A DNA stretch of 64,000 nucleotides, taken from the NCBI RefSeq assembly GCF_011745625.1, contig NW_027191469.1:310001-374000 (forward strand), in the 5' to 3' direction. This DNA is from Cladosporium halotolerans (Eukaryota). Shown here piece after piece: positions 2,493-55,266 of the stretch (the first letter of the stretch is position 1; each line of letters opens with the position of its first letter). Under the pieces are notes generated by a model. The model saw only the letters and a program-made list of their open reading frames with translations. It was not told the DNA's origin and ran no database searches. Both the position numbers and the translations under genes were made by a program.

Positions 2493-2822
2493 GATATGCT
2501 TGGTATCTCCAGGTGTACCGGCTTGTGCGGGTGTTCTTGAGATAGATTTTCTGGAAGGTGGTGTTTGCGATATGGGAGGAACGCGTTGAAATTGGCATTG
2601 TTCTCATATGAGAGGAGTATAATGCTGACAGAAATTCACCGTTGACACCTACAGTCAATGAAGTAACATGGTTATCTGTTGTTTGTGACGCAATAGTTTT
2701 GGGGGATATGTTTGCCGATGAAGGAAAATCTAGACAAGAGTGTTTAGGAAATGGCTAATGAACGACTTGGGTTTGACTTGCCTTGCCTGTTGTATAGGAC
2801 GCTACGATACTTACCTTTCGGA

Positions 2823-6918: not shown

Positions 6919-7512
6919 AGTTGTAGACCAAATGAAACATCTACTCACGTGATTTGCTTTAATTCAGTACGATACGACAGTGAATACCGGACATATACGA
7001 CATCCTCTCCTGGCCTGTCATCATGTGTGTCCGAGCGAGAACCACGACTTAGACTGGAGTGACCCTGATGTCTTCGCCAACAAATGCGACGAGACACTAC
7101 TGCCGATCCTATTCACCGTGCAAGTCTCCCCCCAAGATCCCTCACCAAGCCCCAACATAAAACGCTCAATCCTATCGCCTAATAAACGCAAACCTTACAC
7201 GAGCCTATAATGAACTCGACATAAGGGCACGTATATTCATTTATCTGGGACGCCGCCAGCCTTCCGAGAGTCTCCAGCAATGTGGGTCCTTGGATTGTCG
7301 GTCGCTTCGGATGGAAGTCCGGGTCCACAACATAACATCATGGGCGGAAGTGTAAATCCTGGCACGTCCGAAAAATCGTAGTGTGACTTGTTGAAGGGCA
7401 GAATTGGGAACTGATGATTGGTATTTACTGTAACAAATCTATTGCTATCTCTGTATATTTCATTTAAAGCATAAAACGTAAAAAGAATCAACGCGACCCT
7501 ACCTGAAGGAAG

Positions 7513-7545
<33 letters not shown>
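7513..7545 (+). repeat. (CAAT)8 microsatellite about 40 bp upstream of the SET gene ATG
   Basis: Perfect tandem caat repeat read directly from the sequence. Confidence 0.95.
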
Positions 7546-7546
<1 letters not shown>

Positions 7547-7585
7547 ATTGAAAGAAAAATCTTCAAAGAAGAATCACCACAAACC

Positions 7586-8551
7586 ATGGGCTCCCTAGAC
7601 ACCACACCAGCCTACAAGCAGCAAGCCATCGAAGGCAAAGGACAAGGCCTGGTCGCCACACGCTCCCTCAAACCAGGCGATTTGATCCTCAGCGAGCCCC
7701 CGCTCTTCACGACCGCCTCCCTCACCAACCCAGCCACCTTCGAGAAAGACCTGGGGGCAATCGTCAAGGGCCTCCCCAAAGACGGCCAGCGCGCCTTCCT
7801 CTCCCTGCACAACAACAACCCAGGCTCCGACCCTTTCAGCAACATCGTGCGCTCCAACGGCTACCCGCTCGGCCCCGACAGCGATGTCGGCGCCATCTTC
7901 CCGCTCGTTGCGCGCCTGAACCATGCCTGTAGGCCAAACGCGCAACATACGTGGAACGCCAAACGGGGCGTGGAGGTCGTGCACGCTGTGAGAGAGGTCA
8001 AGGAGGGGGAGGAGCTTACTCTGTCGTACTCCATGGGTGGACCGTCGGAAGAGCGCCGGGGCAGCCTGGAGGCGTACTTCGGGTTCGACTGCAAGTGCGA
8101 GGTGTGCTCGCTGCCGCAAGCAGAGCTCGAAGCGAGCGACGCCCGGTTGCGCGAGGCGCAGAAGCTCGACGAGGCGATTGGGGATCCCAGGCGCGTTCGC
8201 CACTTGCCTGAGCGCGCGCTGGCGGACTGCAAGGCTCTTCTGGGCGTGTATCGCGAGGAGGGAATTTTCGACCTAAGGTTGCCTAGACTTGACTACGATG
8301 CTTTCCAGATTGCAGCGATGCACTCAGATGCTGCGAGGGCGAGTGCGTTCGCTAAGCTGTGTGCTGAAGCGAGGACGGTGTGTGAAGGGGAGGAGAGTGA
8401 GGAGGTAGTGAACATGAGGGCATTGGAGGCGAAGCCTGCGAGTTTCCCGAATTGGGGGGCGACGAAGAAGTGGAAGAGCAAGATTGAGGATGTGCCCAAG
8501 GATGCAGATGCGAACGCTTTCGAGAAGTGGCTGTGGAAGGAGGCGGCTTGA
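7586..8551 (+). CDS. SET-domain lysine methyltransferase (Set5/SMYD-like, helical C-terminus)
   Basis: GKGQGLVATR, RLNHACRPN, GEELTLSY and post-SET FDCKCEVC motifs. Confidence 0.92.
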   Translation: MGSLDTTPAYKQQAIEGKGQGLVATRSLKPGDLILSEPPLFTTASLTNPATFEKDLGAIVKGLPKDGQRAFLSLHNNNPGSDPFSNIVRSNGYPLGPDSDVGAIFPLVARLNHACRPNAQHTWNAKRGVEVVHAVREVKEGEELTLSYSMGGPSEERRGSLEAYFGFDCKCEVCSLPQAELEASDARLREAQKLDEAIGDPRRVRHLPERALADCKALLGVYREEGIFDLRLPRLDYDAFQIAAMHSDAARASAFAKLCAEARTVCEGEESEEVVNMRALEAKPASFPNWGATKKWKSKIEDVPKDADANAFEKWLWKEAA

Positions 8552-11381
8552 GGTTGCCAAAGGCTGTTGGATTCAATGAAATATGATGAATGAATGGACG
8601 TGGAGATTGCCAGTCATTGGCGACTGTGTCGAGAGAGATTGCATTGCCATGTGTCTTCGCGATCTAGACAGCTGGTATTAGAGCGTGTCGGTGTTGGTGT
8701 CGATGCCACTGGCCGGAAGTTGAAAGCTCACGTGACGTGCGAGCGACTTCACGTCTCTCAGAACAGGACGGCACGCAACCTGTGAACCGTAAGTTAGTCG
8801 GCGATCTCTCGCTGCGGACGTGTGTTAGATTAATAACTTCAAGGTGGGCGAAATTGTCAAGGACCTAAGCTTTGCTGTTTGCGTGGGATCGCGGGTCGGG
8901 AGGCTTGCTCGATCTACGCGGTCCGCGAGGAGAAATGAGCCTTCCTTACTAGTGTGCCCATTCCGCTGGTGCTTGTCAGCGGTCTTACTCAGGGGTTCAG
9001 CCCTGCGGTTTCTGCACTTTTGTCAGGTGAGCGGCTGTCTTCACGTTCGGTGGTCGACTCCGAAAAGTGAAATTCAGCTCGTCCGACAGGAGTAATTCGT
9101 CGGGGTTCAAAAAGCCGCCGCGTAACCAGCGGTTTGCAGATCGCAGGGTAATTGAATGTTTTCATCATTTGGCGGTAGGAGATCCATCTTTCGAAAGCTG
9201 CAGGTCTTGAATCGCCGGTCGATGTGACGAACTCCTTTCCCCCTGTTTGGACTAGGGACGAACCCCAACTAAGCCGCACGTGGCTGCAAGGATTTCCTCA
9301 CAGCATTCTGATGCGCTCGATCGAGAACGAAGGGCGTTGGGAGACGTTGAATGCGGTGAAGAAGCCGACGTCTGCAAAACCAGCCTGGCCACAGATTTTG
9401 GAGCCGTGGGAGCATGGGGAGAGAAAGTGCTTGCGCTTCAAAGAGAGGTTTGAAGCTTAGCGACTCGTGTTACACTCCCATTGATAGGTCAGGCCACGAG
9501 TTTGCGGAGCTTCGAGTCAGCAAGCCCCCCGGCAGAAAGCTGCCATTGGCGACTGCGCGGGCCGGGAATCGCGTGGTTGTACTGCGCGGGTACTAAGGTT
9601 TCGGACCGCGTGATCAGGCCCCCTGAAACCTGGGAGGCGCCTTTTCCATGTGTTAGAGGGCCCAGCTTGATTATGTTATGGGTTCGGCAGTAGCGAGAAA
9701 GCTTCCCGCGAGAGAGCCGTTTGGCTGACGGCTTATTGACCTCGAAACCGAAGACAGGCGGAATGGCGTATGTAAGGTACAGTAACTATCGTGCCTTGAA
9801 TGGGCAAGGGCATCTCGCTTCTTCCGGTAGTCTGCCGCGGTCAATCTATTATACCTTGATAGGGTTGCATTGCTGGTCGCAGCCAAGCTGGAAGTGATAA
9901 CTCCGCGTATTATGATCGTTATCACGGCGCAACCTTCCGCATGTGATAGGTTGAATTCGAGCAGCACCAGCGCCGTGATCGCAGCGCGCTCCTCGCGCCA
10001 CGTGCCCCCCGGCGGTGGTGCAGTAAAGGATACATGATACATGGTACGGCAGTACGAATGGCTCAGCGCGTGCATTACATTGCATGTGCCGCGATCTGGT
10101 GGCTGGGCTGCGCGGCGGCACCCATGGCCCCCCCTGAAAACGTGGCGGTGGAGGTGCACGAGTAAGTGGCATGCCAATGGCTCTGCCAGGCCGGCGGGCA
10201 GATTCCGGCGACTTCGTGACGGGGAACGCCCATTACTCGAAGGGAGCTCCCAGTCGTCGCACCGGCCGGATGGTAGTGGAGGAGACAAAGTCAAGAGTCA
10301 GCGGGCTCGGGTGATGTACTAGTGACTGCTGAAAGTAGCATTGATTAGGGCCTGCAGAAGGCCGCAAAAACTCTGGCCCAGAGCCGCTGGAGGAACTTGC
10401 CCGCCTCGCCGTCTCCCCGCCGCGCCGTCAGCTGTTGATCTCAATCGAAAGCTTGGGACCTTGTGAGGGCGAGCCAGCGCGGCGGAAGCATACGTGGTGG
10501 GCGGAAGGGCTCCCTGGCCTCCTCCCTGCCCGTCCGTCGCGCCGTCAATGCCCGCCGCGGTCCCGGCACGTGAGGAGGTATCATTGTTTGTATTGTAGAG
10601 TAGGAGAGCGCCTCAGTCCCCAGTGCCGGAGCGCGGCCACGGCAGCAGCAGGCCCTGCTCCCTTCTTCAACCCACCGCCCCCCTTCCCTCCCACGCGTCC
10701 ACCCACCCACCTCACTTACTCGCCGCGCCGTGCCCGTCGGCCCTTCGTTCTGGAAGCGTCTAAACGCGCACTTGTCTCGCCGCCGGCGCCGCGCTGCCTG
10801 CTGCCCTTCGCCGATTCCCGTCCACGTTTGCGGGGACTAACACTAGCCCGCCCCGTTCAAGGTCCGCGCAGCCGCATCCGCCCAGCTAGCCGACTTCGAA
10901 CCCTCCTGCGGCCGCCGCTGGCAGGAGCAAAGAGCGAGCCAACTTCCTCCGCCTTCAGCTCCTTGTCCGACGACCTCACCTCCCTCCCAAACCCCCCTCA
11001 CCTCCGACTCCTCCGCCGTCGCCTTCGCACCGCTGAGGCCGCGGTACCACCTCTCCGCCTCCCGTGTGCCACCGACCTCCTCCTGTGAGCCCCGTCCACG
11101 CTGCGGCCACAAGCGCGAGCGACTCCCTCGACGCGGCATCCGGCGTCGCACCGCAGCCTGCTCCACCGCGCTGCACTGCTCCAGGGTCGCTCCTAGGCTT
11201 CTGGCGCGCCGTTTCCCGCCCGCTGCACCCTCGCTGCCAGCATTGACGCAGCTCTGCACGTCTTCCTCGCATCCCCAACCTTCGACGGCTACGCCAGCAG
11301 CATTATCGCCGGTCCGCCGGTCGAAGATCGCATTCACTCAGCTTCAACTCGACAGATCCGCCGGATCGTTGTATGTTCGCC

Positions 11382-38459: not shown

Positions 38460-41400
38460 ATGGATGCTGCCAGCCTCATATATACTGTTTCCAAGGATCT
38501 CTATGTATTCTACCAAAAAGCAAACAGACGCGAGGATGACATCAAAGACATCCGAACCCAGTTGCTCTGGATGGGGGAGAAGTCTGTCTTGGTCCAAGTT
38601 TTGCTGCAACGAGATGGCGTCAAGGCTGAAGACACGTCGAAGATCGAGAGCAACCTGCAGAATTGCCAAACTGCCGTGATAGAGCTCACCAGTGCTGTGG
38701 ACAAGCTGAAAACATTGGACCATAGCAGCACAAATGGCATCGCAAACCTAAAAACCCGGCTCATAAAGATGGGAGTCAGGACAGCATGGCCGTTAAAGAC
38801 GGAGACGATTATTGCTCTTGGAGGGCACGTCAGGACATGTCATGATGCTCTGGACTCTGCAATGTCGCTCTTGCACATGAACATCAGCGCATCGAATATC
38901 GAAAAAGTCCGAGATCTGGACAAGACGATCATGAGTGGAAAGACGAGCTTGGAGAATGCCCTGAACACCGCTCGATCCTTGTTTAAAGATGAGCTTCAGA
39001 TAATCTCACGTCAGCTGGTACAACAATCCCAGGTACTCGCGCATCAGGCTAAATTGCTAGTTAGCGAGCAAGAAATACAACGGACACAAAGAGTGTTGGA
39101 CAGCTTGAAGTACGACGGCATGGAAGATCGCGAGCACCAGATAGAAGATTCCAAAGACATTACCTACGTCTGGGTTTTCACCCATGAGGCGAAAAACCTG
39201 CCAGAAGTGCAGAACCTTGTGAATTTCCTGAACACTGGCTCTGGCCTTTTTTGGATCTCAGGCGAAGCAGCATCCGGAAAGTCCACTTTCATGAAGTACC
39301 TTGCGAGGCCCCAACGCACAGGATCCGACTTGTGGCAGTGGAACGGAAACAGTGAATTCATCGTCGTTCGGCACTTTTGCTTCGTCGCTGGATTGGAGAT
39401 GCAGAAGACCCAACTTGGCCTGCTGAGAACTTTGCTATTCTACCTACTCAAAGCGGAACCGGGCCTTGTTCCCGATGTCTGCCCTGATGTGCCCAATGCT
39501 GGCCTCGGGCAAGGTCCCTGGTCGGTCCGTGACTTGCGCGGTTCCTTGCAACGTGCTGTTCAAGCGACTTCTAGGCGACTTTGTATTTTCGTTGACGGGT
39601 TGGATGAGATCTACAAGGAATCTGAGCTCGAAGATGTCGTTCGCTTTCTGAAACAAATCGCTTCTCATGGGCACGTCAAACTGATCATCTCTTCTCGGCC
39701 GTGGAGAGTCTTCAGGGGCCACTGTGCTGCGAAAAATGAGTTACACATGAAAAGTATCAACACAAGAGCGATTGTTTCGCATCTGAAGAGCACACTTGGA
39801 TCCTTGCCTGCTTTCCTTGACGTCTCCTGGCAATGCCAGACGGGTTTTCTCGAGTGCGAGCACACCGACGACTACTCACAGAATATCGACAGAAATGCCC
39901 ATGGAACGGCCCACAGGTTAATCTTCAACCTCCTTTACAAAGCCCAAGGGAACTTCCTTTGGATCTATCTAATCTCAAAATCCATCCGATCAAGGTTGGA
40001 TGCAGATCTCAGCATGGCTAGCACCATCAAAAGAATCGATGAAACCCCAAGCGATCTCAACACTTACTTCCGAGAGATGATCCTTGAAAGACTTGACAAA
40101 GACCTGCGATCTGAGACTGCCATGGCTTTGCGTATCGCACTTCTGCCGGACTACGCCACCTCATGGATCTCATTTTGGCAGCTTTTGAACCACTGCAATG
40201 GCGAAGCGCCATCGCTAGAGCACGCCGACTTCTCTACACTGACACCCTATCAACTGTACGATCGCCCAGCGGTTGAGAGCATGATACGGCAGACAGGTGA
40301 TTTCCTGGACCAGTGTGGCAGAGATCTTCTGGACACTCGTCGAATGCGTCGTCTACTGATCACAGTGAACGGCCCTTGGAAGAGATTTGCAAGACGCCGC
40401 GTCATCTTCACCCATCGTACTGCGTATGATTTTTTGAAAACGCGAGAGATGGATGATCTGCTGAACGAGCGGACTCCACGGGCATTTCGCGACGAGAATT
40501 TCCCGCACAGCCTTCTACTTTCACAGATCAAACTATCATTTGGAGGCACAGGTGTCAGCAGCAGGAGGAATGAAGCAATCTCCGCCTGGCGACTCATTGA
40601 GCACGCTTTAAATCACTTCAATGAAGAACGGGTTTCACAGCAACCATCGAGGTTTGCGAAACTCGCCAAGGAAGCAGACGCCATAGCCCTGCACTATTTG
40701 GTGGATTTGGAATCTCTATTCCATGATTCTTCACAATACACTCTGTCGGACAAGGTTGTTTCAAAGTACGTGTGTTACTCTCTCGCTTGTCACGGCTGTT
40801 ATGGCACCATTGATACGATTCTGGAGCGATGGCCGGCGCAAGCCTGCTCTATTCGTGACTATTTCGACCACGACATGTTAAGCGATGCTTTGCGTCTGTC
40901 ACCGTATCATTATGATGACGAAAGTCCCAATTTGAAATGGCTGAGGAAACTACTTGCCGCAGGTGCTGATCCGAATAGGCCATGCATCTTCTCATCGTTC
41001 CGATCCAATCAAACGGATGCCTTAGCATGGTCCACAACTTGGTGCAGATTTCTGGACGAGCTGGAAGACCACACGCAAGGTTTGCCTGTTCAAGCAGACG
41101 AAGGAGACCAAGGATCTGTAATAGCTCCACCTCTTCCTTTTTCGTCTCCGAGTGTACGATCTGCAATCAAGCTCCTCCTTGAATTCGGTGCAGACCTTCA
41201 ATTCACTCGTACTAGACTGGATCCAAGGACCGTCGACTTCCAATTCCGCACTGAGTCTGATATAGGGGACGATACTGTGATTGAGGACGGACGCATCGAT
41301 CCACTAGCCATACTACGAGCCCGGCTTCCCATGGACGCCGATTCAGAATGGCCTTCGCTCCTAGAGCACTACCTGAAACCCGAAACACGCCAGGAAATAC

Positions 41401-41474
41401 AAGAAAGACGTCGGAAGATCCTGGAAAAATGGCCACCGTCATATCGACCGAACGCCTTGACAGAACTTGTCTGA
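38460..41474 (+). CDS. NACHT-domain (fungal NLR-like STAND) protein with a helical N-terminal domain and degenerate ankyrin-like C-terminus
   Basis: Walker A FWISGEAASGKSTFMK, Walker B CIFVDGLDE, ISSRP, AQGNFLW and FTHRTAYDFL. LLAAGADPN and LLLEFGADL occur near the C-terminus. Intronless. Confidence 0.9.
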   Translation: MDAASLIYTVSKDLYVFYQKANRREDDIKDIRTQLLWMGEKSVLVQVLLQRDGVKAEDTSKIESNLQNCQTAVIELTSAVDKLKTLDHSSTNGIANLKTRLIKMGVRTAWPLKTETIIALGGHVRTCHDALDSAMSLLHMNISASNIEKVRDLDKTIMSGKTSLENALNTARSLFKDELQIISRQLVQQSQVLAHQAKLLVSEQEIQRTQRVLDSLKYDGMEDREHQIEDSKDITYVWVFTHEAKNLPEVQNLVNFLNTGSGLFWISGEAASGKSTFMKYLARPQRTGSDLWQWNGNSEFIVVRHFCFVAGLEMQKTQLGLLRTLLFYLLKAEPGLVPDVCPDVPNAGLGQGPWSVRDLRGSLQRAVQATSRRLCIFVDGLDEIYKESELEDVVRFLKQIASHGHVKLIISSRPWRVFRGHCAAKNELHMKSINTRAIVSHLKSTLGSLPAFLDVSWQCQTGFLECEHTDDYSQNIDRNAHGTAHRLIFNLLYKAQGNFLWIYLISKSIRSRLDADLSMASTIKRIDETPSDLNTYFREMILERLDKDLRSETAMALRIALLPDYATSWISFWQLLNHCNGEAPSLEHADFSTLTPYQLYDRPAVESMIRQTGDFLDQCGRDLLDTRRMRRLLITVNGPWKRFARRRVIFTHRTAYDFLKTREMDDLLNERTPRAFRDENFPHSLLLSQIKLSFGGTGVSSRRNEAISAWRLIEHALNHFNEERVSQQPSRFAKLAKEADAIALHYLVDLESLFHDSSQYTLSDKVVSKYVCYSLACHGCYGTIDTILERWPAQACSIRDYFDHDMLSDALRLSPYHYDDESPNLKWLRKLLAAGADPNRPCIFSSFRSNQTDALAWSTTWCRFLDELEDHTQGLPVQADEGDQGSVIAPPLPFSSPSVRSAIKLLLEFGADLQFTRTRLDPRTVDFQFRTESDIGDDTVIEDGRIDPLAILRARLPMDADSEWPSLLEHYLKPETRQEIQERRRKILEKWPPSYRPNALTELV

Positions 41475-41593: not shown

Positions 41594-42363
41594 TCATCCC
41601 GCAACCGGCTGCGGCTCCCCCACCCTCGCCCCATACGAAATCCTCCCCCCGGGCAAAAAGAACAACGCCACGCCCCTCCCGCCCCTCGCGCGCGGATAAT
41701 GGTGCGAACCTGCAGGCAAGCTCGTCCAGCCCGCGCCCTGCCAGCGCTCGCCGACGGGCAAGCCCTCGAGCTCAAAACCCGGATCGATCGGCACGACGCA
41801 GTTGATCTCGCCGTACGGGTGCTTGTGGTACTGGCCTGCGTAGATGCCGGAACCCCCGGTGGTGTCGAAGTAGACGGTTGTGATGGACATGTAGAGGGTT
41901 TCGGGGGTGGGGAGGGAGATCTGGCGGGTCTCAGTAGGGGTGGGAGTGGGCTGGGGGTTTTCTTCTTTTTCTTGTCGAGGAGGGTGGGGATGGGATGGGA
42001 TGGGGAGGAAGACGGACACGACCGCGGCGGTATTTAGGCCCGTCGAGCTCGCCGGAGGCGGCCCAGCCTTCTTCGATGCCTTTCTTGACGAGGGTGCAGA
42101 AGTCTTCGTAGAAGGCGTTGCCGGGGCCGTAGTTGGCGTTGAGGTGCGATTCGAGGTCTTTGCCAGGCGTTCTGGGGTTGGGTTGGTCAGTTGATTGGAG
42201 CTCAGTCAGATCGGGTCGATAATTCAGTTACAACTCACAAGTCTTTTACTTCATGCATGAACTCGCCGACTCGCTGCACCAGTTTCGCTGCCGCGGGGTA
42301 GGCATTGAGGTCGACGCCGGTGGGCGAGCCGTCGTAGCCGCCCGGAGGATTGGTGGTGGTCAT
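41594..42363 (-). CDS. PnbB / 4-hydroxylaminobenzoate lyase-like (DUF4863) cupin, 201 aa; exons 42363-42239, 42171-42018, 41920-41594
   Basis: The spliced model (606 nt) gives EGWAASGELDGPKYRRGRI, GQYHKHPYGEINCVVP, GWTSLPAGSHHYP and LFFLPGGRI. Confidence 0.85.
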
Positions 42364-42976: not shown

Positions 42977-43910
42977 TCAAGGCTTCTGCTCAGCCTGAGC
43001 ACCACCCGCATCAGCGACGGGCTTGACGTCGCTGGCGCTCTCCTTAGTCTGGCCCAGAGGCAGCTTCTCCTTGGAAGCCTCGAGGCTCTCCTCCTGGCTG
43101 GACAGGAGGGTGTGGACCGGGGCGTCGAGCTTGGCGCGGCCCTGGAGGAAGTCGAGCTCCATCATGAAGAGGAAGCCCTTCAGGTCACCAGCCAGCTTGC
43201 GGACGAGGGAACCGGCGGCGGCGGCGGATCCACCTGGGAGAGAGATATGGTCAGCGGAGGTGTTCACTGGGAGTGCAGCAGGGTTGACGGGAGAGCTTAC
43301 CAGTCGCGATAATGTCGTCCACGATGATGACCTTCTGGCCCGGCTTGATCGCGTCCTCCTGCACCTGGAAGTGGTCGGTGCCGTACTCCTTCTGGTAGCC
43401 CTCGGTGACACACTTGCCAGGGAGCTTGCCCTGCTTGCGGACGGGGACGAAGCCGGCGCCCAGGCGCAGAGCGAGAGTAGGACCGAAGAGGAAGCCGCGG
43501 CTCTCAAGGCCGACGACGACGTCGATGTCGCTCTTCTCGCCGACAGTGGTGTCGAAGGCGGCCGCGACCTGCAGCTCCAGGGCGCGCACGAGGTCCGTGA
43601 AGGTCTTGTGGTTGGCGAAGATGGGCATGATGTCCTCGAAGAGGATGCCCGGCGAGGGGAAGTCGGGGAACTGGCGCAGAGCTCCGCGCAGGTTTACTTT
43701 AAGACGGGAGAGTTCGGCGGGACCGGAGGCATAGGCGGCGGCGAGTCCTCCTTGGGCGCCATTGCTGGCGGTGCTGGTGGTCGGGTCGGGCTTCTCGGCG
43801 GGCGGGTGGGAGGCAGTGGAGGGCTTGTCGACGGCCTGAGTGCTGGCGGAGGTGTTGTCCGGGTGGCCGTGAGGAGGGTGCTGAGCGTGCGAGACGGGGG
43901 CGGCGCTCAT
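42977..43910 (-). CDS. apt1: Adenine phosphoribosyltransferase; one intron at about 43233-43300
   Basis: [39 protein letters not shown] and the PRPP motif [12 protein letters not shown]. Confidence 0.96.
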
Positions 43911-45594
43911 ATTGGGAGAAGGAGGGGAGGGGTTTTTTCCTGGGGTGGGATGGGAAATTTTTTGGTGGGCGGATGGCTGCGTCGGCGGGTGCAAGAGTGA
44001 GGTAAGCGGTGACAGGGCCGAGAGGGGAGCTGGAGCGAGATGCTGGGGGGAGGTGCAGGCGAGCGGCGGGCGACACGGCAGGTTTGTGCGTGGAGTCTGG
44101 CGATGGTTGGGTCTGGTTGGGTTTGTTGCTGCACAGATATCACAGCAGGGCGGGCGGCGGGCGGCGATGGTGGGAGTGCGGGGCGCAGGGCCGGGAGGGA
44201 CTGATTGACGAACACCGACCAAGGGCCGCTCCCAGGGACCGCTCACATTGTTGTTTTGGGCTGTGATTACTTGACTGTGCGACAAATGATCACGCATATA
44301 CGACATGTTCATTGTATACGTCTAGCAAGGTGACACACCACAACGCTGTCCATACCATACCCGGCAATAAACCAACCACACACATTGATCCCACCATCAT
44401 CTACCCCCTCCCATCCCATCCCATCCCACCTCGCACCCTCCACGCCGTCACGCAATAATAACAAAGCCCCCAAGTAGCTCCCTCCCACCACGAGTGGCGG
44501 TCTACACGCTCCACACGTGTCCGCGCGTATTGGCTGGCAAATCACTCAGCGGCAAAGCGAGAGATTCGCGTTGCGGGGCACACGCACCAAGCACACACGC
44601 CTGGTCTGGCCTGACTCTTCACGCAGCCCTGGCCGCTTGGAAGCGAGCTCCGAGCTCCCTAAGGTAGTAAGTAGTAGGTCCTTGGTAGCAAGCTTCAGGT
44701 CCATCGAACGTCTTCCCACGTCACACCAGCAGAGCGGCAGAAGAAACGCAGACGCAGCCTGCACTCCACCCTCAACGCATGCACCCGCCCGTCAGCCGCA
44801 CGAGCTACGAGTCTCGAAAGCGTTCCAGAAGGCCTCCCCGTCTGCAGCCGAGCCGGTGCTGTCGCGTCAGATAAGCAGCGAGTCGTGCGAGAGGTTGTTC
44901 AACCAGACGGACGGCTGGCGGGGGAAGGGCTTGCTTGCTGCGTCTGCCGACGTCGTCCCATCTTCGGGAGACCGTGATGGCCGGATGATGCTGTGTAACG
45001 TTGCACGCGATGGTTTCTTTGTGTCTTGTTGAGGGTGGGCAAGATTGAGTGGATTTGTGCATGCAATAGATTGTGGATGGTGAACGCTTCAAGAACGAAG
45101 TGTTGTATGTCGGCTTCTATTGGGTCAACCATAGGTGTGGATGTCTCACTTTTGTACGCCTGCTCATCGACTGCACCCGCGTTCTGATCTATCAGGTCGC
45201 TCAGCTGGCTTGACGAGGCCTACAATGAACCTCAAGAATGTTACAGATGGGTTGGCCAACATCTCTGATTGATTGGATCCTTGAACCCATCACACAATCG
45301 TGTCTGACTAACAAAGCCAAATGGGTCCTGTTGACACGTCTGACAGCTCCCAGGTGGCGTGAACACCTGGAGAAATCGCCATTCTGCTCGTCTCACGTTC
45401 GACCGTCTTTATCCGGAAGCTTGTGCCTCGCGCTCGTGCCAAAATGTGACATGTCGGTGGTGCAGGCACGGGACGCGTTACATTTGCGACGCGTCGTGCG
45501 TCCTTTACCGCCGCTCAATTCTACCACCACCTTCCCAACCGAGAACAGCGAAAGCTTGGCATCACCGTCGAATCACGCCGCAACTTCTCCCCCT

Positions 45595-46287
45595 TCAGCA
45601 AAACCTATGTGTCTGCTTCACAACCGCGTCGTCCATCTCCCACTTATCCAACAACCCACACCTCCCAAACACACCCCTAACATCCTTCTCCTTCACATCG
45701 TCCCTCATCCAACCGATTAGCACCTCCCTCAACTTCTCCCTAACCTCCTCGCAAACCTCCCTATCAACCCAAGGCAACACCCCCTCCTCCCCCCTCCCCT
45801 CCAGCCTCGCCCAATACCCCGTCCAACACCTCCTCGCAAACCGCACAACAGCCCGCTCCACCACCTCCCTCCCACACCCCAGCTCCAACCCGACCAGAAC
45901 CTCCACGACCCTCCTGGCACCCCACACCGGCATCCCCGGCCACGCGCCCGTCACCGTAACCCAAGCCTCAGCATACCTCTCCGCGAGCCCCGGGTCCAAA
46001 GCCGCCCAGTCCTGCTTGGGGTGAGTCGTGGCGAGCCTGTGCGCTTCGGCAGCGATGGGCGAGGGGACGAGGTAGCCGGCGTGCTGCGTCTGCCAGGGCG
46101 TGCCGTCCCAGACGTCGTAGAGGACGTGGCCGCGGGCGAGGGTGGCGGTGCGGGCGAAGTGGCGGGTGTGGGCGGGGTCGGTGGCGGGGATGAGCGTGTG
46201 GGTTGGGGGAAAGGGGTGGGATTTCGTGATGCGGATGACGGTTGAGTATTCGTGGTCTTGGGTGGGTAGGTGGGTGTGGAAATCCAT
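45595..46287 (-). CDS. Hypothetical protein (230 aa)
   Basis: ATG-initiated ORF with the same 5' C-rich to 3' G-rich codon gradient as neighbouring genes. No recognised domain. Confidence 0.55.
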   Translation of the reverse strand: MDFHTHLPTQDHEYSTVIRITKSHPFPPTHTLIPATDPAHTRHFARTATLARGHVLYDVWDGTPWQTQHAGYLVPSPIAAEAHRLATTHPKQDWAALDPGLAERYAEAWVTVTGAWPGMPVWGARRVVEVLVGLELGCGREVVERAVVRFARRCWTGYWARLEGRGEEGVLPWVDREVCEEVREKLREVLIGWMRDDVKEKDVRGVFGRCGLLDKWEMDDAVVKQTHRFC

Positions 46288-46703
46288 GATTTTCGGATTG
46301 GGTTGGGTGCTTGGTGGGTTCTGGGGTGACGTGATTTCGCGCATGTAATGTGCTGTAGACGTCGTGCGCGTGGGTTTGTGTAGTTCCCAGACATCCTTTG
46401 TCGTCCGGATCGAGCATGGAGCACAAGTCCCTTTGTTCGAAGCTGTGATGTCTGGCGGGTGCGCATCGTGAGATTGAGGTGGATGTTCTTTGTTGCTCTT
46501 GCGGAGTTTGCACGGACGTCATATGCGCTGCCAGGGAGAAACGGCATATCTTCCATGGTCATCATGGAAGCCGTTCTATTCGACGATATTCAGTCTTGAA
46601 CAAAGCATGTCCAGTGTGGTATCCGGCCAAGAAATCAATGCCAAAGAAGACATGGAAGGGCCGAAATCGAAATCTCTCAAGAATGCACTGTTGGACGACA
46701 ATC

Positions 46704-48803
46704 TCAAATCGGTGTGTCAGTCCCGTTGACGCCTTCCGGACCAGCACTTGGTTCCGCTGAATCATCGTCCTGTATCTCGATAGGGTCTTCGTGCGTGTTG
46801 TTTGTCTGGGTGCCAGATGAGCGCGCGACATTAGCAGGAGCCGCAGCGCCGGGTGTAGCAGGAGGGGCGCCGTTGCCAGATGGCATGCGCGCCGCGCCAA
46901 CCTCATCAGACTCTCCCATGCCATTGACTTCTGGCCAGAGACCCTTCCATAGCCAGAGGGCTTGTGCGAAAGTCGCCTCGCAGCGCTGCAGTTCCTGGCG
47001 ACCGTTTCCTTGTGTCATGCCGTTAGCTACCTCGTCGACGATCGACCTGCAAGCGTCGACGAATTTGCTGAAGGCCGGTGACGTCCAATTAGGGATCAAA
47101 GCCTGATGAAGGGCGTTGATGTGAGCTTCATTGCTGGTTGAGTCCGGGCCGAAAGGGTTACCATTATTGTTGGACTGTCCAGTCATGAACGAAGGGAGCG
47201 AGTAGTTTGACCCAGAGGTATTGTTGGAGGTGAAGGTGCTGGCGTAGTGCCACGACTTTCGATAGCACTAGGATCATATGTTAGAATAAGGACACCATGA
47301 GAACTTGGTCATAGACATACATGTTCAGTAGCCCAAAGCAAAACCAGGCCTTCCAGCAAAGATGCGCCAGAGCTTGAGGTGCTGGCAAACAGATCGATGA
47401 AACCTTTCGTTGCGGGCTTCATGTCTTCTGAATCGATCTGCAAACCATACTTGCTGGCGGTGTTGTCGAAGAAATTCATTTCACGGCGAACGTTGTTCAG
47501 CGTGCTGATTAGGAGGTCCATGGTACGGAATATTGTGTTATCCATCGTGATTGCGGTATCCGGGAGCCGCATCTTGCCGAGTAGACGTCCGATGAAAGTC
47601 ACAAAGGCACGTGAGATGTGGGCGTCCTGTGACAGCCATTGGCATAGCGCGTGTGCGGACAGAGTACCACAGCCTGCGTGAGAGAGGAAAGGAAGTTGAG
47701 TGGCCGAATCGAGAGATCCCGAATCGCGGCTCAAGAGATGATTGACAAGAGACGGCGTTGGTCCGGGTGGAGGCGGTGGCGCCATGGGTTGGCGATTAGG
47801 CGTCACAGGCACACCCGGATAGGAGTAGCCTTTGGCAGCAAGGGGAGGAGTGGGATTCGCATGAGGTCGCGGAGCGGCGCTCAGATGCGGATTCGCGACG
47901 TTGCCGCGTAGAATGCTGCCACTCTTTCTCTGAGGCGGCATCTTTTCTGGTTCGGGGCTTTTCTCCCCGGCTACTGTCCGCCTTTCCTTCTCTGCAAGGT
48001 AGGTCGGACACCTGAGCAGATGCTCAATTTGACGAGTAGTGTTTTTTGCTCGCTTGAAGCCGCAATGCCTGCAGCGACTGCGTGTGCACTACATGACAGC
48101 ATTAGTGCTGTCGCGAGAAGTGATGACTATCTGCAAATGAAGGATCAAGGTACCCTTCGCTCGTCGTCGAACGAGTCCTCAAACTCCTATCAATGGCCGT
48201 CAGTTTCGTCATCATGCTAGTTCTTCGGCCGGTGCATCAATCTACCCTTTGGAGATCTGCATGAGGTTAGATTTAATTACATAGAGCGCCAAGCCAAAGC
48301 GCCGGAGAGGAAGTACCTGGTCTTTTCTGCTGTAGTACCGAGCAGCTAGTCTCTGCACCTGCTGCGGCAGGTGGACTGGCTTGGTCGCTATTTTGTTGCC
48401 GTTGGCTGAGAAAGGAAAGTCAGCATGCACGCGGTACTCGGCGTTGTAGTGAAAAGCAGACGCGAACGCTCTGGCGCGAAGCCAGACGTGGGTTTTGAGC
48501 CGAAAGAGGAAAGGGCTGATTTCACGCTTACTCTTCGCTGGTCGTCCCGTGAAAGGAAGGGCGTGGGACTCTCTGGTTGTATGGGTTCACTGGGCCCATT
48601 TCTTGCCCATTGCCTGCTTCTCTCCATTCGAGGTACGCCGGGCATGTCGTGAGATGGGTCTTCTTACGGCCTAGGCTGACGGTACTGACGGTCCAGGTCT
48701 TGCAGTGCAAGCAACGAATCGTCGGAATCTCTGGGTCGCCGCTCTGGTGAGTGTCAAGTGTCTCAAACTGGCTGTGAGTGTAGACGTCCCCTGTACGAGG
48801 CAT
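46704..48803 (-). CDS. Tandem BED-type zinc finger + TenA/heme-oxygenase-like fusion protein (578 aa); exons 48803-48532, 48405-48317, 48256-48246, 48186-48154, 48088-47321, 47267-46704
   Basis: All five introns are GT..CTRAY..YAG and phases match (1737 nt). Finger 1: IRCLHC..KKTHLTTC. Finger 2: SRCRHC..AKNTTRQIEHLLRC. TenA-like motifs ATQLPFLSHAGCGTL, WLSQD, RREMNFF, LWATEHCY and IPNWTSPAF. Confidence 0.8.
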
Positions 48804-49520
48804 TGTTGCTTGGACAGGTAGCCAGTACAGCGCACAACGTTTGGACACGCTCTGGCCGATATCAATTGGTCGTAAGACGGCCGTGAACGACTGAAAAACA
48901 GCTTGTAACGGCGATAATTGGCGGCTCTAATACCACCTAAACCAGATGGGGATCAAGACGGAGCCTGCCGCCTTTGCCAAGTCGCTCTCAGAAAGAATGA
49001 GAATGCCTCCGTTGCCGTAAGACAAGGCACATGGACAATTTCTGTCCAAATGACGAATCCACAGCCTTCTGCAGCCGTCGATTGCAGCAACGAGCAACCG
49101 TCTGCGTTGATCTAAGTTTTCGTTGGCACCGAACAGAGGAAATGCGTTGCGAAGAACCTGAAGAACGACATGCGGTGCCCCACCAAGCCGCTACAGGAAG
49201 CCAGCCCACCGGGGTCTGTCGTTAGCCCGAACCATGGACAAGCCAATTCTTGGGACGGCTCGCTCTTATCTTTTCCTTTGAGCCATCTTTTTCCTTTAGG
49301 AGCTTTCTGTCATCGCTACCGCAGCTGTTCTTTCTGCTAAGTTGACTCTCGAGGTCTCTCGTTCATCAGGCAGGTTCTCACTATCCTCAGGAATTGACTT
49401 CGACGTTTGCGACGCTTCTCGCCGATGTCGCTCTCAATGTTTGGTAGCACTAACCATCTTCACAGGCGCATCCACTGTCTGAAACAGCTTTCGAACGACT
49501 GTACGCCACGCCCTACCACA

Positions 49521-49813
49521 ATGCATTCTAGTAGCAAAGCCGCATCTGGAGTCCAAGATCAAGGTATCGCCCGTAAACAGCATGAGCCGGTGCTCGACGC
49601 TTAGCTGCGGCCCGTGACACGAGCGCATTACGCATACCGAAAGGTATGGACGCTCTGTCCGGACCGCAGCATTCGTCGGGCTGAGATCATACGGCCTTGA
49701 ACTTGCTCTGGGTAAAGCCAGCGAAAGGATCATGCTTTTGAGACAATCTGAGAGTGAGGTGTGAGAAACTGACTTCTTTAGGACACCATGGAAGAGCGCG
49801 GAACAATGGATGA
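49521..49813 (+). promoter_or_regulatory. Inhibitory uORF created when the proximal donor (49564) is spliced to the acceptor (49781)
   Basis: ATG 49521 reads MHSSSKAASGVQDQ, splices in phase 1 to G-HHGRARNNG*, and overlaps the permease ATG (49788) out of frame. Confidence 0.65.
49579..49736 (+). promoter_or_regulatory. TPP (thiamine pyrophosphate) riboswitch aptamer in a 5'-UTR intron of the NCS1 permease
   Basis: P1 AGCATGA/TCATGCT, P2 GCCG/CGGC, P3 GCTCGACG/CGTCGGGC with a long extension, CTGAGA pyrimidine-sensing junction, and P4/P5 ACTTGCTCTGGGTAAAGCCAGCGAAAGG matching the fungal pattern ACTTGATCTGGATAATACCAGCGAAAGG. Intron is GTATCG (49564) ... CTGAC ... TAG (49781). Confidence 0.93.
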
Positions 49814-51389
49814 AGCGGCCGGTGTGTCGCAACGCCAGAGAATGCAAGATGTTGAAAAGATCGGGCCAAACCTTGCGCCCCAAACGTCTGTCGCTGCGCA
49901 GACGGATTCTACGGATGCCGAAGCAACTGCTGGCCGTGGACCAATGCGATACATGAAGTCTTTCGAGAAGACCTTAATTCGCTACAATATGGAAGCGCGA
50001 GGAATCCAAAGAGTCATGCCGGAAGACCGCCACAGCCTTACTCAACTGGGCTTTGGCCAGATCGGTATCCTGTGGTTCAGTGTCAACTTGGCCGCCAACA
50101 ATATCACTCTTGGTATGCTGGGTCCCGCCGTGTACCATCTCGGCTTCACTGAGGCGAGCTTGTGCGCGGTGTTCGGTATGATTGTAGGCATCCTCCCAGT
50201 CGCGTACGTCGCTACGTTCGGACCAAGGTCTGGTAACAGGACCATGGTTTTCGCCCGCTACTCGATGGGATGGTACCCTGCGAAGATCATCGTGATCTTG
50301 AACATCATCGTTCTTCTTGGATACTCTCTCCTCGATGCTGTGATCGCCGGACAGATGATCAGCGCTGTCAGCGGCAGCGGCAACTTGAGCGTCGTCGTGG
50401 GCATCATCGTGGTCGCCGTAATCACCTGGGTCATCACGACCTTCGGCTACAGCGTCTTCCACCTGTACGAGCGATACGCCTGGGTTCCCCAAATCATCGT
50501 GGTCTCCATCCTAGCCGGCGTCGCCGGCCCCTCCTTCGACCTGACCTCCAACCCATCCGAAGGCGAAGCACCCCTCACAATCAAAGGCAACCGCCTCAGC
50601 TTCTTCAGCCTCTGCCTAGCCGCCGCCATCACGTACAGCGGCGGCGCCGCCGACCTCTTCGTCTACTACCCCGAATACGCGCCGCGCCGCAAAGTCTTCT
50701 TCGTCACCGCCCTCGGCCTCGCCGCCTCCTTCACCTACGCCTTCATAGTCGGCATCGGCCTCGGCTCCGGCATCGCGCGCAACACCGCCTGGAGCGACGC
50801 GTACACCGTCTCGCAGGGCGCGCTGATCGTCGAGGGCTTCGCGCCGCTGGGCGCCTTCGGGTCTTTCTGCGGCGTGATCGTGGCCCTCGGCCTCGTCGGC
50901 AACATCATCCTGCCCGTCTACGCGTCGGGCGTCGACTTCCAGACGCTGGGGACGAATTTCGAGAAGATCCCGCGCGTCGTGTGGAACTCCGTCGGCGTGG
51001 TGATTTTCACCGTCTGCGCGATTGCTGGGCGCGCGAACCTCGCGACGATCTTTACGAACTTCCTCGCGCTTATGGGATACTGGGTGTCGATCTGGATCGC
51101 GATTCTGCTGGAAGAGCACCTGCTTTTCCGCAAGTGGCGCGGACTGGGCTGGAATTGGGATGCGTGGGACGACGCGCGCAAGCTGCCTGTTGGTCTTGCG
51201 GCACTGGTTGCGTTCCTCGTCGGTTGGGCGGGCTCGATTCTGTGCATGGCGCAGGTTTGGTATATTGGTCCGCTGGCGGCGCTGGTGGGAGAGTATGGTG
51301 GAGACATGGGCAACTACGTTGGGTTTGCTTGGGCGGGGATTGTGTTTCCTGGTCTGAGGTGGTTGGAACTGAGGAAGTTTGGACGGTGA
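49788..51389 (+). CDS. NCS1-family purine-cytosine permease (Fcy2/Tpn1-like), probably transporting thiamine or a precursor
   Basis: EARGIQRV, LWFSVN, FGPRSGNRTMV..RYSMGW, FHLYERYAW, ADLFVYYP, NFLALMGYW, AQVWYIGP and ELRKFGR; about 12 hydrophobic helices. Substrate is inferred from the riboswitch. Confidence 0.92.
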   Translation: MEERGTMDEAAGVSQRQRMQDVEKIGPNLAPQTSVAAQTDSTDAEATAGRGPMRYMKSFEKTLIRYNMEARGIQRVMPEDRHSLTQLGFGQIGILWFSVNLAANNITLGMLGPAVYHLGFTEASLCAVFGMIVGILPVAYVATFGPRSGNRTMVFARYSMGWYPAKIIVILNIIVLLGYSLLDAVIAGQMISAVSGSGNLSVVVGIIVVAVITWVITTFGYSVFHLYERYAWVPQIIVVSILAGVAGPSFDLTSNPSEGEAPLTIKGNRLSFFSLCLAAAITYSGGAADLFVYYPEYAPRRKVFFVTALGLAASFTYAFIVGIGLGSGIARNTAWSDAYTVSQGALIVEGFAPLGAFGSFCGVIVALGLVGNIILPVYASGVDFQTLGTNFEKIPRVVWNSVGVVIFTVCAIAGRANLATIFTNFLALMGYWVSIWIAILLEEHLLFRKWRGLGWNWDAWDDARKLPVGLAALVAFLVGWAGSILCMAQVWYIGPLAALVGEYGGDMGNYVGFAWAGIVFPGLRWLELRKFGR

Positions 51390-52911
51390 TGGGTGGTGGT
51401 TGGGATAAGGAAGAATTGGGTTCTGATGCCGTTGAGCCTTCAAGCTCAATGGGTATGACCTACGTATTTTGGACATAGGTGTGAATACAAGATTGCCACT
51501 TTGAAGTATTCATTCATTTGATTTCGATCGTGTCGACGAGATCCGTAAAACCACGGGCAGCTGAGATTAATTTCCAATGGCCGGACATCGTGAAGCACAT
51601 GGAACACTCCAGCAATCGCAGCGAAGCAGGGGTTCCTGTCGACGACACGATATATTTTATGTGGGCGATATTTTCATTTCAGAGGTATTATCCGGAATGC
51701 TCGCTCCACTTCGGGTCGTTTTGCCTTGCGGCGCCGGCTACATCCAAAATTGATGCCAAAGCGTAATCAGCTTCTTATCGGCGGACTTGCGCCCGGTTGT
51801 ATTTTTCCGCCTGTCGCCGCGGATGTCGGTGGAAAAGGCAGCCCACGTGTGACCATTACATGAAGCATCGTGAAATTCTGTGACCATGCTTTTTGTCGTG
51901 GCGTTTGCCATGCCGCCGTAGAAGGTTGAGAGTCACCCTCAGTTCTAGGAGGATGTCAACTTGGCATCACAGGGTCGTTGCTCCATCTGAGCTCAAGGCG
52001 TGCAAGTTGCTTCTTTGGATTGCCGAACCTCCGGAACAAAATGTGACCAATGCCGAGAGGGATACCAGACGGTTTTCCGGCTCCAAGGTACATGTATTAT
52101 CATGATGTTTGTGAAGCTGACCGGCTTGGCTTCCGCAGCATGCCGCTTACAGTACAGGATGTTTTCATGGCTGTGTCAGCGATTAGAGAGACACCGAGCT
52201 GCAGCCGCCGCAAGTTGCCATGTCATTATGAAAGCAGCTGGCCCCGCCGGGGGGCAGCACAAGGTTGCTAGCACCCGTCCAAGGCCCTTCTTCGTAGCTG
52301 ACTGACACACGCTATCCGGCGGTTGTTTGGAACAAACACAGACCGACAGTCGTAGCATTAGATAGATAAACAGTCATACGAAAAACAAGCTTAGTTCCGT
52401 TTGCACAGTACGGCAGTTCGTAGGACCAAGCAAGACGTGGAGGGCGATTGATGTGACTTTAGCCGCCCAGACACCGACGGACGAAGCGTTGAGCGAGTCC
52501 CCTTCAACAACAGTTCCATATCCGCGATACAGGCAAAAGCCGCGGAGTGCCGGCGTCTGCGCAAACAGCCCTCCCGCCGTCTGTGCCAGCCTCGCCAGCC
52601 TGCCCGGCCTGCCGTTGCCAGGCCTCACACGCCTCGCTCGACGGACTGCCACGCGAAGGCCGAAGGCGGATCGAATCATCGCGCTGATCGCGGCGGGCCC
52701 AGCGCCAGCGTGCAGGGCCGACTAGCAACTGCGCCCGCGAGCCCCTACTCGCCCCTCGTCCAAACATTGCCCCACCATCATCGTCATTTTTCACCCACCC
52801 ACCGACGACACGCCACCTTGCCCTCCGCTCTCTTTTACTGCCCGCCCTCATCCACATCTCACACCTTCTTTCCCACGCTACACTGCAGATCCATCTGACA
52901 CTACCGCAAAG

Positions 52912-55266
52912 ATGGGCTACGACAAGACTGACCAGCTGGCTATCAACACCATCCGCACTCTTGCGGTACGTTTGTTGGGACGAGCTCAATGGAGGGGCAG
53001 CACCGCGTCACTGCACCGCAATGGCTGCGGTCAAGCTCCTCCAGCACGACAGTATCACTGACTGACATGATTTACAGGTGGATGCCACCTTCGCTGCCAA
53101 CTCTGGCCACCCCGGTGCGCCCATGGGTATGGCCCCGGTCGTGAGTCCCCCCCGCCCTCACCGCAAGCTTCCCATCAGCTCCCAGTCGCTAACCACACAT
53201 CCTGCCCGCAGTCCCACGTCCTCTTCAACAAGTTCATGAAGTTCAACCCCAAGAACCCCAAGTGGCTCAACCGTGACCGCTTCGTTCTTTCCAACGGCCA
53301 CGGCTGCGTGCTCCAGTACTCTCTGCTGCACCTCTTCGGCTACAAGCTCTCCATCGACGACCTGAAGAACTTCCGTCAGGTCGACTCCATCACCCCCGGT
53401 CACCCTGAGTCTCACGACACTGAGGGCATTGAGGTCACCACGGGCCCTCTCGGCCAGGGTTTCGCCAACGCCGTCGGTCTCGCCATGGCTGAGCGCCAGA
53501 CCGCCGCTACCTTCAACAAGCCAGGCTACGAGCTCGTCAACAACTACACTTACTGCTTCTTCGGTGATGGCTGCGCCATGGAGGGCATTGCCTCCGAGGC
53601 TGCCTCCACTGCCGGTCACCTTCAGCTCGGCAACCTGATCACCTTCTACGATGACAACCACATCTCCATTGGTAAGAAAGATTTTGGAATAGAAATAGAA
53701 GGGACACAGCTAATATTCTTTAGACGGTGACACCAAGTGCGCCTTCACTGAGGACGTCAGCAAGCGCTTCGAGGCCTACGGCTGGCACGTCGTGTGGGTC
53801 AAGGACGGTGACAACGACCTCGAGGGCATTGAGAAGGCTATCAAGGAGTGCCAGGCCGTCAAGGACAAGCCCTCCATGATCAGGCTCACCACCACCATTG
53901 GTTTCGGCTCCAAGCTCCAGGGCACCGGTGGTGTCCACGGTAACCCTCTCAAGGAGGACGACTGCAAGCAGGTCAAGGAGAAGTTCGGCTTCGACCCGTC
54001 CAAGAGCTTCGTCGTCCCCCAGGAGGTCTACGACATGTACCACAAGCACGCCGACGAGGGTGCTGCCGCTGAGCAGGAGTGGAACCAGCTCCTCGAGAAG
54101 TACTCCGCTGAGTACAAGGCTGAGGGCGCTGACCTCAAGCGTCGCCTGACTGGCAAGCTTCCCGACGGCTGGCAGGAGAAGCTCCCGACCTACAAGGTCG
54201 ACGATGCCGCCATTGCTTCCCGTAAGCTCTCCGAGACCGTCCTTGAGAAGATCTACGACGTCATCCCTGAGCTCGTCTCCGGCTCTGCCGATCTGACTGG
54301 CTCCAATAACACCCGCTGGAAGGCCGCCGTCGACTTCCAGCCCCCCAGCACCGGTATTGGTGAGTGGTCTGGCCGCTACATGCGCTACGGTGTGCGTGAG
54401 CACGCCATGGCCGCCATCATGAACGGTCTCTCCGCCTACGGTACCCTCATCCCCGCTGGTGGCACCTTCCTTAACTTCGTCTCCTACGCCGCCGGTGCTG
54501 TCCGTCTCTCCTCCCTCTCTCAGCAGCGCGTCATCTACGTCGCTACCCACGACTCCATCGGTCTGGGTGAGGACGGCCCTACCCACCAGCCGATCGAGAC
54601 CCTCGCTCACTTCCGTGCCCTGCCCAACATGATGGTCTGGCGCCCGGCCGACGGCAACGAGTGCTCCGCCGCTTACTACGTCGCCCTCACCTCCCAGCAC
54701 ACTCCCTCCATCCTCGCCCTCACCCGCCAGAACCTTCCCCAGCTCGAGGGCTCCACCATCGAGAAGGCCATCAAGGGTGGTTACGTCGCGCTCGAGGACA
54801 AGGAGGCCGACGTCACCCTCGTCTCCACCGGTTCCGAGGTCTCCATCTGTCTTGAGGCTGTCAAGACCCTCAAGGAGAAGAGCAACCTCAAGGCCCGCGT
54901 CGTCTCCATGCCCTGCACTGAGGTCTTCGACGCCCAGCCCAAGGACTACAAGCTTTCCGTCATCCCCGACGGCATCCCCGCCATGTCCGTTGAGGTCATG
55001 TCCACTCTCGGCTGGGAGAAGTACTCTCACGAGCAGTTCGGTCTCAACCGCTTCGGTGCCTCTGGCCCCTACAAGAAGGTTTACGAGGTACGTTACCCAT
55101 CGCCTTCTAATTATCCATTTATATTGTATGCTAATAATGCCTTCCACAGAAATTCGAGTTCACCCCCGAGGGCATCTCCAAGCGCGCCGCTGCCACCGTC
55201 GATTTCTGGAAGGACGTCAAGCCCCTCCGCTCCCCGGTCAACCGCGCTTTCCAGCAGCTCATCTAA
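52912..55266 (+). CDS. tkl1: Transketolase; 4 introns
   Basis: [33 protein letters not shown]-binding GDGCAMEG...YDDN, GVREHAM and [16 protein letters not shown]. Strong C-ending codon bias. Confidence 0.98.

Follow-up and report, generated by a model that had tools for sequence, protein, structure and literature searches.

A divergent zinc finger-TenA gene and TPP-riboswitch permease gene form the conserved core of a putative thiamine salvage locus in Cladosporium halotolerans

We analyzed a 64,000-nt stretch of DNA from Cladosporium halotolerans (contig NW_027191469.1, positions 310,001 to 374,000; referred to as the window), which corresponds to contig C89 of the 27.9-Mb assembly. In this window, a gene encoding a TenA-family domain preceded by two zinc fingers lies head-to-head with a gene for a permease whose leader carries a thiamine pyrophosphate (TPP) riboswitch. 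This divergent finger-TenA/riboswitch permease pair is the conserved unit of the locus. An adenine phosphoribosyltransferase (APRT) gene is a looser, old neighbor of the pair, and the transketolase gene on the other side of the permease is a recent chance neighbor. As to function, we hold with about even confidence that the two genes serve salvage of the thiamine pyrimidine and that the enzyme of the pair has turned into a protein without catalysis that probably binds nucleic acid. The riboswitch and the permease are already known; the linkage between TenA and the permease and the fusion of TenA with fingers appear to be new. No paper on the fusion or its linkage to the permease was found in a literature search whose coverage ended at subscription papers.

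Linkage was assessed in 20 named genomes that encode both proteins, with gene or accession numbers assumed to follow gene order. The two genes are numbered consecutively in 8 of them, namely, Polychaeton, Cryoendolithus, Rachicladosporium (two pairs), Hortaea, Meristemomyces, Friedmanniomyces simplex, F. endolithicus, and Bathelium, which fall in four orders (Capnodiales, Cladosporiales, Mycosphaerellales, and Trypetheliales). They are two apart in Neodothiora and three apart in Zasmidium. The linkage, proposed in a sequence-only reading of this one genome, is therefore conserved. A second comparison employed 79 related metagenome loci (L-numbers; C-numbers denote contigs of this genome and X-numbers public sequencing runs). 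Thirty-four of these extend at least 2 kb upstream of TenA, and the permease was present there in 11. With the reservation that several loci are duplicates, a divergent adjacent permease was found in 10 of 11 two-finger loci versus 1 of 23 one-finger loci. None of the permease hits carries a TenA domain. The flanks shuffle while the TenA-permease core stays: the block is found in opposite orientations between the same kinase and F-BAR genes in L012 and L015, the orthologues of these genes (91% identical) lie on C132 and C1 of this genome, and both L022 and the window have flanking neighbors other than those of L012 and L015. Pairwise ORF-based (open reading frame) comparison of 11 long loci left TenA, permease, and APRT as the only genes that recur widely.

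The remaining two genes behaved differently from the pair and from each other. APRT was near TenA in 7 of the 79 loci, downstream as in the window (L012, L015, and L017), upstream with a RidA gene in between (L051, L085, and L082), or at a distance of 9.5 kb (L039). It is absent from L087, a locus in which the pair is flanked by about 9 kb to the left and to the right. The transketolase gene is unlinked to the pair in all 11 named genomes that could be compared, Cladosporium sp. NU13 among them, and is absent from all 79 loci, including the 8 that reach more than 2 kb past the permease. We attribute the utilization arm to recent juxtaposition because of this lack of linkage. The sequence-only reading had suggested a co-regulated module for sensing, import, and use. 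When the genes are judged as a metabolic cluster, linkage holds for TenA and the permease, partly for APRT, and not for the transketolase, which was rejected as a member of the block by synteny. The four-gene module is rejected, and the two-gene pair is real. This negative result matters in its own right, as it removes the transketolase from the story.

The permease matches PF02133 with a score of 67.2 bits (cutoff, 23.5) and is an NCS1/Fcy-like protein. Judged by its leader layout, family, and the species of its homologues, it probably belongs to the AN4526-type riboswitch-controlled transporters. This transporter group, similar to Tpn1 and Fcy21 and with a substrate that is predicted only, counts among the five groups of fungal genes that carry a TPP riboswitch (PMC5997356), and many Dothideomycetes and Aspergilli have been reported to possess such a switch on a "nucleoside transporter" (PMC5882874). 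As in the AN4526 type, an NCS1 permease similar to Tpn1/Fcy21 has its riboswitch in a 5' leader intron (PMC5997356; PMC5882874), and the printed example from Bipolaris maydis displays the same order of upstream donor S1, upstream ATG (uATG), and downstream donor S2 (PMC5882874). The gene studied here differs in an extra GC-AG leader intron, the GC donor of which is kept in five related loci, in a long P3 stem, and in its linked finger-TenA gene, of which we found no mention in the available parts of PMC5997356 and PMC5882874.

All elements of a Type I platform can be recognized in the leader: two donors with the uATG between them, an aptamer ahead of the 3' splice site, and pairing of S2 with the aptamer. 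Splicing at S2 leaves a 24-codon out-of-frame upstream ORF (uORF) that overlaps the main start, and splicing at S1 removes it. The S2-spliced form was present in runs X1 and X6. The S1-spliced form is not among the joints listed from the run contigs, which is no evidence of its absence. The predicted duplex between the S2 segment and the aptamer strand had an energy of -20.6 kcal/mol, equaled by 1 of 500 shuffled sequences; when the entire 65-nt aptamer half served as the target in a less strict test, values as good came from 3% of shuffles and 5% of nearby 25-mers. The two-donor/uATG layout was recovered in six of seven related leaders tested and by eye in the seventh (L086), which has a variant S2 context. 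The aptamer core (P1, CUGAGA, P4/P5, and the GCG-A motif) is conserved in relatives. Against Rfam RF00059, the aptamer scored 35.1 bits (E value, 9e-05), below the gathering score of 54.3; at the gathering threshold, Rfam gave no match in the window, and the permease switch appears by E value only. The very long P3 stem in the predicted fold is the likely reason. In the same genome, the switches on THI4 and NMT1 likewise score under the gathering value (36 and 27.7, respectively). Together with the permease switch they are the three TPP riboswitches found among 49 candidates scored, a number to be taken as a lower bound, and all three have a common layout of two donors 55 to 68 nt apart, a uATG between them, and an S2 predicted to be masked by the aptamer strand. 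The Neurospora NMT1/THI4 Type I switch has the two donors, the uATG, and the masked S2 as well; here, by contrast, a transporter is controlled, and the uORF overlaps the main start out of frame. The permease leader is thus predicted to follow the published Type I mechanism. The RNA control layer anticipated by the sequence-only reading is real, as judged by sequence layout, and had already been published for this class of transporter.

The partner gene encodes 578 amino acids in a frame free of internal stops, and its TenA domain is 80% identical to that of Cladosporium sp. NU13. A search for longer homologues returned 86 proteins, and all 72 with species names are from Dothideomycetes, as judged from the names (five checked). 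The nearest solved structures are the TenA_E proteins At3g16990 and PF1337, and for the model of the Polychaeton homologue, 2F2G and 1RTW ranked first with TM scores by target of 0.84 to 0.87, in agreement with a TenA_E fold. Yeast PET18 is another member of this subfamily. The domain is not of the TenA_C (thiaminase II) type: the equivalent of Cys135 is Thr389, which aligns with Glu128 of PF1337. The subfamily TenA_E is defined by two conserved active-site glutamates (PMC5635689). Our protein shares with At3g16990 and PF1337 the fold, the lack of the catalytic Cys, and the conserved Asp and Glu140/Glu129 equivalents, the latter being E390. It departs from them at the second defining glutamate, where W498 occupies the Glu198/Glu205 position, in the loss of the Tyr47 and Tyr112 equivalents (I293 and F365 in this protein; the sites are named after Bacillus subtilis TenA by way of the PF1337 alignment), and in having two zinc fingers ahead of the TenA domain and an acidic tail after it. 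Mutation of Tyr47, Tyr112, or Glu205 each impairs the B. subtilis enzyme (PMC5623701).

Among rows complete at all eight sites, with fragmentary rows excluded, the Tyr/Tyr/Glu set was intact in 72 of 82 without a detected finger versus 7 of 84 with a finger; the rows without a finger include a few pieces of fused proteins. When 66 selected rows were placed in a quick tree (SH-aLRT supports), the fused family formed one clade (34 rows; 99), and all Trp forms formed one clade inside it (22 rows; 99). Taken together, the sequence comparisons indicate that the fused partner arose from a fungal TenA_E protein by gain of a BED-like finger and that, on the Dothideomycetidae branch, the Glu205 equivalent was replaced by Trp and the stacking Tyr was lost, with a second finger added later. 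The predicted catalytic site runs from intact (Bathelium, Patellaria, and Botryosphaeriales) to degenerate (Dothideomycetidae), and the family offers a natural series well suited to studying how an enzyme may turn into a regulator. The genome of C. halotolerans also contains a stand-alone TenA paralogue on C57, catalytically intact by its sequence, and a kinase-TenA (THI20-like) gene on C317.

The C2HC ligands are invariant in both fingers, and the structure models are confident. The sequence-only reading had called the domain BED. Resemblance to the BED finger (PF02892) is seen in the C-x2-C...H-x3-C spacing, the helix-strand-strand-strand-helix model, and matches to the ZBED1 and ZBED2 structures and to neighbors in a structure atlas (scores of 0.85 to 0.88, to be taken as a lead only). 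However, the leading motif lacks a Trp, and zf-BED scored 9.4 to 12.9 bits in 6 of 14 homologous proteins and gave no match in the rest, against a Pfam cutoff of 20.6; the label BED denotes a likeness. A fold search with the isolated finger matched BED domains and RNA-binding U1-type fingers alike at Z scores of 3.7 to 4.3, with none above 4.3; the ZBED2 match (Z score, 3.7; root mean square deviation, 3.8; 63 aligned residues) was tied with SF3A2- and TUT1-type fingers. The protein may bind DNA.

The preferred reading of the pair, as a salvage unit with a partner that is no longer an enzyme, can be put as follows. By analogy to the Neurospora NMT1 model, without TPP the aptamer strand would mask S2, S1 would be used, and the permease would be made; with TPP, S2 would be freed, and the uORF would shut off translation. 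The permease would be a TPP-repressed importer of thiamine or of a pyrimidine precursor or breakdown product thereof (hydroxymethylpyrimidine [HMP], aminomethylpyrimidine [AmMP], or formylaminopyrimidine). The pyrimidine half is the more plausible substrate, since both the TenA neighbor and the CytX/PLUTO precedent point there. The pair would have begun as an uptake-plus-hydrolysis salvage unit resembling bacterial cytX clusters, in which cytX reportedly adjoins tenA under a TPP riboswitch, as described by Rodionov et al. in 2002. In the present genome, the partner would be a non-catalytic, oligomeric, nucleic acid-binding protein tied to thiamine salvage, and the chemistry would be left to the stand-alone TenA_E and the THI20-like gene elsewhere. 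The gene for CytX, an NCS1 transporter, is found in clusters of thiamine genes in bacteria, and HMP is transported by the homologue of CytX in plants (PMC5874261). Both settings have an NCS1 transporter under thiamine control beside a pyrimidine-salvage gene (PMC5874261), whereas the fungal pair is eukaryotic, divergent rather than operonic, controlled by a splicing-based switch, and has a probable pseudoenzyme as the transporter's partner. The conserved TenA-family neighbor points to a concrete substrate class for the AN4526-type transporter.

Several observations weigh against this reading. The pair is 12 genes apart in Aureobasidium pullulans, is 42, 65, 120, and 344 apart in Lasiodiplodia, Patellaria, Didymosphaeria, and Diplodia seriata, respectively, and lies on different contigs in Cryomyces, Bimuria, Amniculicola, Melanomma, and D. 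corticola; adjacency is dispensable. The genomes with adjacent copies are mostly close kin and represent about two independent lineages, and an unrelated pair, the permease and pelota genes, is also kept together across orders (L082, Diplodia, and Lasiodiplodia). The riboswitch permease is common in Aspergillus, yet just one of the named fused-TenA proteins comes from that genus. No 8- or 9-mer is common to the upstream DNA of permease, THI4, and NMT1. In addition, with Trp in place of Glu205 the pocket may be filled and closed to any ligand, and the finger model fits RNA-binding U1-type fingers as well as it fits BED domains.

A serious alternative, although one that we consider somewhat unlikely, is that TenA, permease, APRT, pelota, and RidA are ancestral neighbors left together by neutral microsynteny, that short divergent spacers resist inversion, and that the job of the finger-TenA protein is unrelated to thiamine. 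It owes its standing to the pair being broken in half of the genomes, to the kinship of most adjacent ones, and to the survival of permease-pelota across orders. L082 (positions 2436 to 11283) has the order permease, pelota, APRT, RidA, TenA; permease and pelota are adjacent in Botryosphaeriales too; separated copies are often on one contig, as mesosynteny predicts (PMC3516569); and the TenA pocket is degenerate. This alternative nevertheless requires that TenA came to lie beside one of three TPP-riboswitch genes by a coincidence of 0.5 to 4%, a rough estimate of the chance of some adjacent pair among 8 to 20 thiamine genes in a genome of 10 to 12 thousand genes. It also has to accommodate direct adjacency in two distant lineages, one of which (Bathelium) has an intact active site, and the narrow set of genes that recurs among the long loci.

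A stronger claim than the salvage reading is that the finger-TenA protein is a one-component regulator in which the dead salvage pocket senses a pyrimidine precursor and controls the permease, perhaps along with THI4 and NMT1. We judge this to be distinctly unlikely because the Trp may close the pocket and no common promoter word was found. Ten 7-mers were common to the three upstream regions compared with a control mean of 13 (one genome, low power), and a shared promoter word was rejected. The loss of pocket residues fits a non-enzyme and at the same time weakens TenA as a ligand sensor. The protein control layer foreseen by the sequence-only reading was not borne out by either line. A precedent exists in yeast Thi3, a proven regulator that has a decarboxylase fold, senses TPP, and lacks a DNA-binding domain of its own; there, too, the fold of a thiamine-pathway enzyme is reused without catalysis in gene control, which for the finger-TenA protein is proposed only. 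If the claim were true, filamentous fungi would read thiamine status twice at one locus, TPP by RNA and the precursor by protein, and the pairing would identify the orphan AN4526-type transporter as the fungal HMP/AmMP importer.

A purine-salvage cluster, in which adenine taken up by the Fcy-type permease would feed the linked APRT and the riboswitch would have no bearing on the pairing, is very improbable. Fcy-family members do carry purines (PMC8306328), and APRT lies near TenA in the seven loci described above. However, L087 has the pair without APRT, APRT goes with TenA and not with the permease in Aureobasidium-like loci, and it is hard to see why a purine importer should keep a TPP switch. 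It is likewise very improbable that the fused TenA is still an enzyme and that uptake plus hydrolysis by the pair is functional in this organism: D290, E390, Y393, and W452 are retained, the TenA fold is assigned with confidence, and a few fingered rows retain Tyr/Tyr/Glu, but each of the three changed positions impairs B. subtilis TenA when mutated (PMC5623701), and an intact paralogue exists in the genome. Clustering and co-regulation of sensor, importer, and TPP-using transketolase is scarcely credible, as the adjacency in this genome and the need of transketolase for TPP are set against its lack of linkage in 11 of 11 named genomes, its absence from 8 of 8 loci reaching more than 2 kb beyond the permease, and its nature as the principal housekeeping transketolase gene, preceded by 1.5 kb of upstream DNA that belongs to it alone.

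The features of the locus are compiled in the table. Contigs of public runs X1, X2, X6, and X11 were taken as RNA by guess, without an RNA record; those of X1, X6, and X11 contain spliced joints, and contig depth is not usable for ranking genes or as evidence of expression. Introns of APRT, TenA, the permease leader, and transketolase are backed in this way. All five TenA introns are covered by one X1 contig and separate exons at 48803-48532, 48405-48317, 48256-48246 (an 11-nt micro-exon), 48186-48154, 48088-47321, and 47267-46704 on the minus strand. The four genes named by the sequence-only reading are real and lie where it placed them, according to Pfam, RNA joints, and open frames. The order from left to right is APRT (-), 230-amino-acid ORF (-), finger-TenA (-), permease (+), and transketolase (+). 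The head-to-head start codons, put at about 1 kb apart, are separated by 984 nt; the distance from the TenA stop to the APRT start, put at about 3 kb, is 2.8 kb and includes the ORF, which had gone unmentioned; and the next gene, 1.5 kb from the permease stop to its start, does encode a TPP-dependent enzyme, the main transketolase. The best-matching transketolase cluster (95%) holds five named Cladosporium proteins.

Table. Features of the finger-TenA/permease locus (window positions)
Feature	Position	Strand	Remarks
APRT gene	42977..43910	-	2 exons, intron 43234-43300, 288 aa; PF00156; RNA joint in X1, X6, X11
Intronless ORF, 230 aa	45595..46287	-	between APRT and TenA
Two-finger TenA gene	46704..48803	-	six exons, 578 aa; RNA joints in X1, open frame, homologues
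TenA_E-derived domain, approximate limits	46900..47760	-	D290, E390, Y393, W452 kept
Finger 2 core, C141-x2-C144...H-x3-C162	48008..48073	-	common to whole fused family
Finger 1 core, C31-x2-C34...H50-x3-C54	48642..48713	-	present in Capnodiales sensu lato
Divergent intergenic region and first leader exon	48804..49369	.	Cladosporium-like locus alignment
Permease 5' leader intron 1 (GC-AG, 96 nt)	49370..49465	+	joint in X1
Upstream donor S1 (predicted ON form, removes uATG)	49501..49506	+	
uATG and first part of 24-codon out-of-frame uORF	49522..49563	+	
Downstream donor S2 (GT at 49564) and segment able to pair with aptamer P2-P5 5' strand	49546..49569	+	
TPP riboswitch aptamer, long P3 stem (about)	49579..49736	+	inside intron ending at 49781
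NCS1/Fcy-like permease, 533 aa	49788..51389	+	PF02133
Main transketolase gene, 5 exons	52912..55266	+	neighbor in this genome only, outside conserved block

Within the divergent spacer, near 49210-49255, three short words are kept across six Cladosporium-like sequences and are candidate promoter elements. The 230-amino-acid ORF is kept in close relatives and Cladosporium-like loci; it matched no Pfam family, and DUF2293 is a weak lead only (score, 0.79). One X1 contig spans TenA exon 5 through this ORF to 44445 (window 44445-46703), for which a very long 3' end, read-through, or merged adjacent transcripts are candidate readings. Beyond APRT lie a PnbB-family (4-hydroxylaminobenzoate lyase-like) gene at 41597-42360 and a NACHT-like gene at 38460-41474, neither of which was found in the related loci. 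Conversely, L082 and L087 have an amidase near the block, of which no close copy was found near the window. Two further transketolase-like genes with 43 to 46% identity are located on C46 and C1, and one C1 match has three internal TGA stops.

Homologues of the TenA protein have a conserved C-terminal motif, and the window protein stops about 15 residues short of it (window 46704-46790); its acidic tail contains a short hydrophobic-acidic motif that may resemble a SUMO-interacting motif. In L082, the remaining glutamate of TenA is lost as well. The finger-TenA protein of Aspergillus spinulosporus nests within a Teratosphaeriaceae-like Trp clade in the quick tree (support, 97; P0431 and P0426), for which horizontal transfer is a possible explanation; L073:9557-11281 shows 73% likeness to P0426, and no permease lies within 9.5 kb of it. 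In P0086 and P0474, an intact TenA_E domain is combined with a helix-turn-helix domain of another kind (in P0086, of the CENP-B type); merging of genes during gene calling or fusions that arose independently may account for these. An ascomycete cluster with DUF3237 carries the same kind of finger, by atlas structure match, and the finger may be a module that has been fused to several enzyme-like domains.

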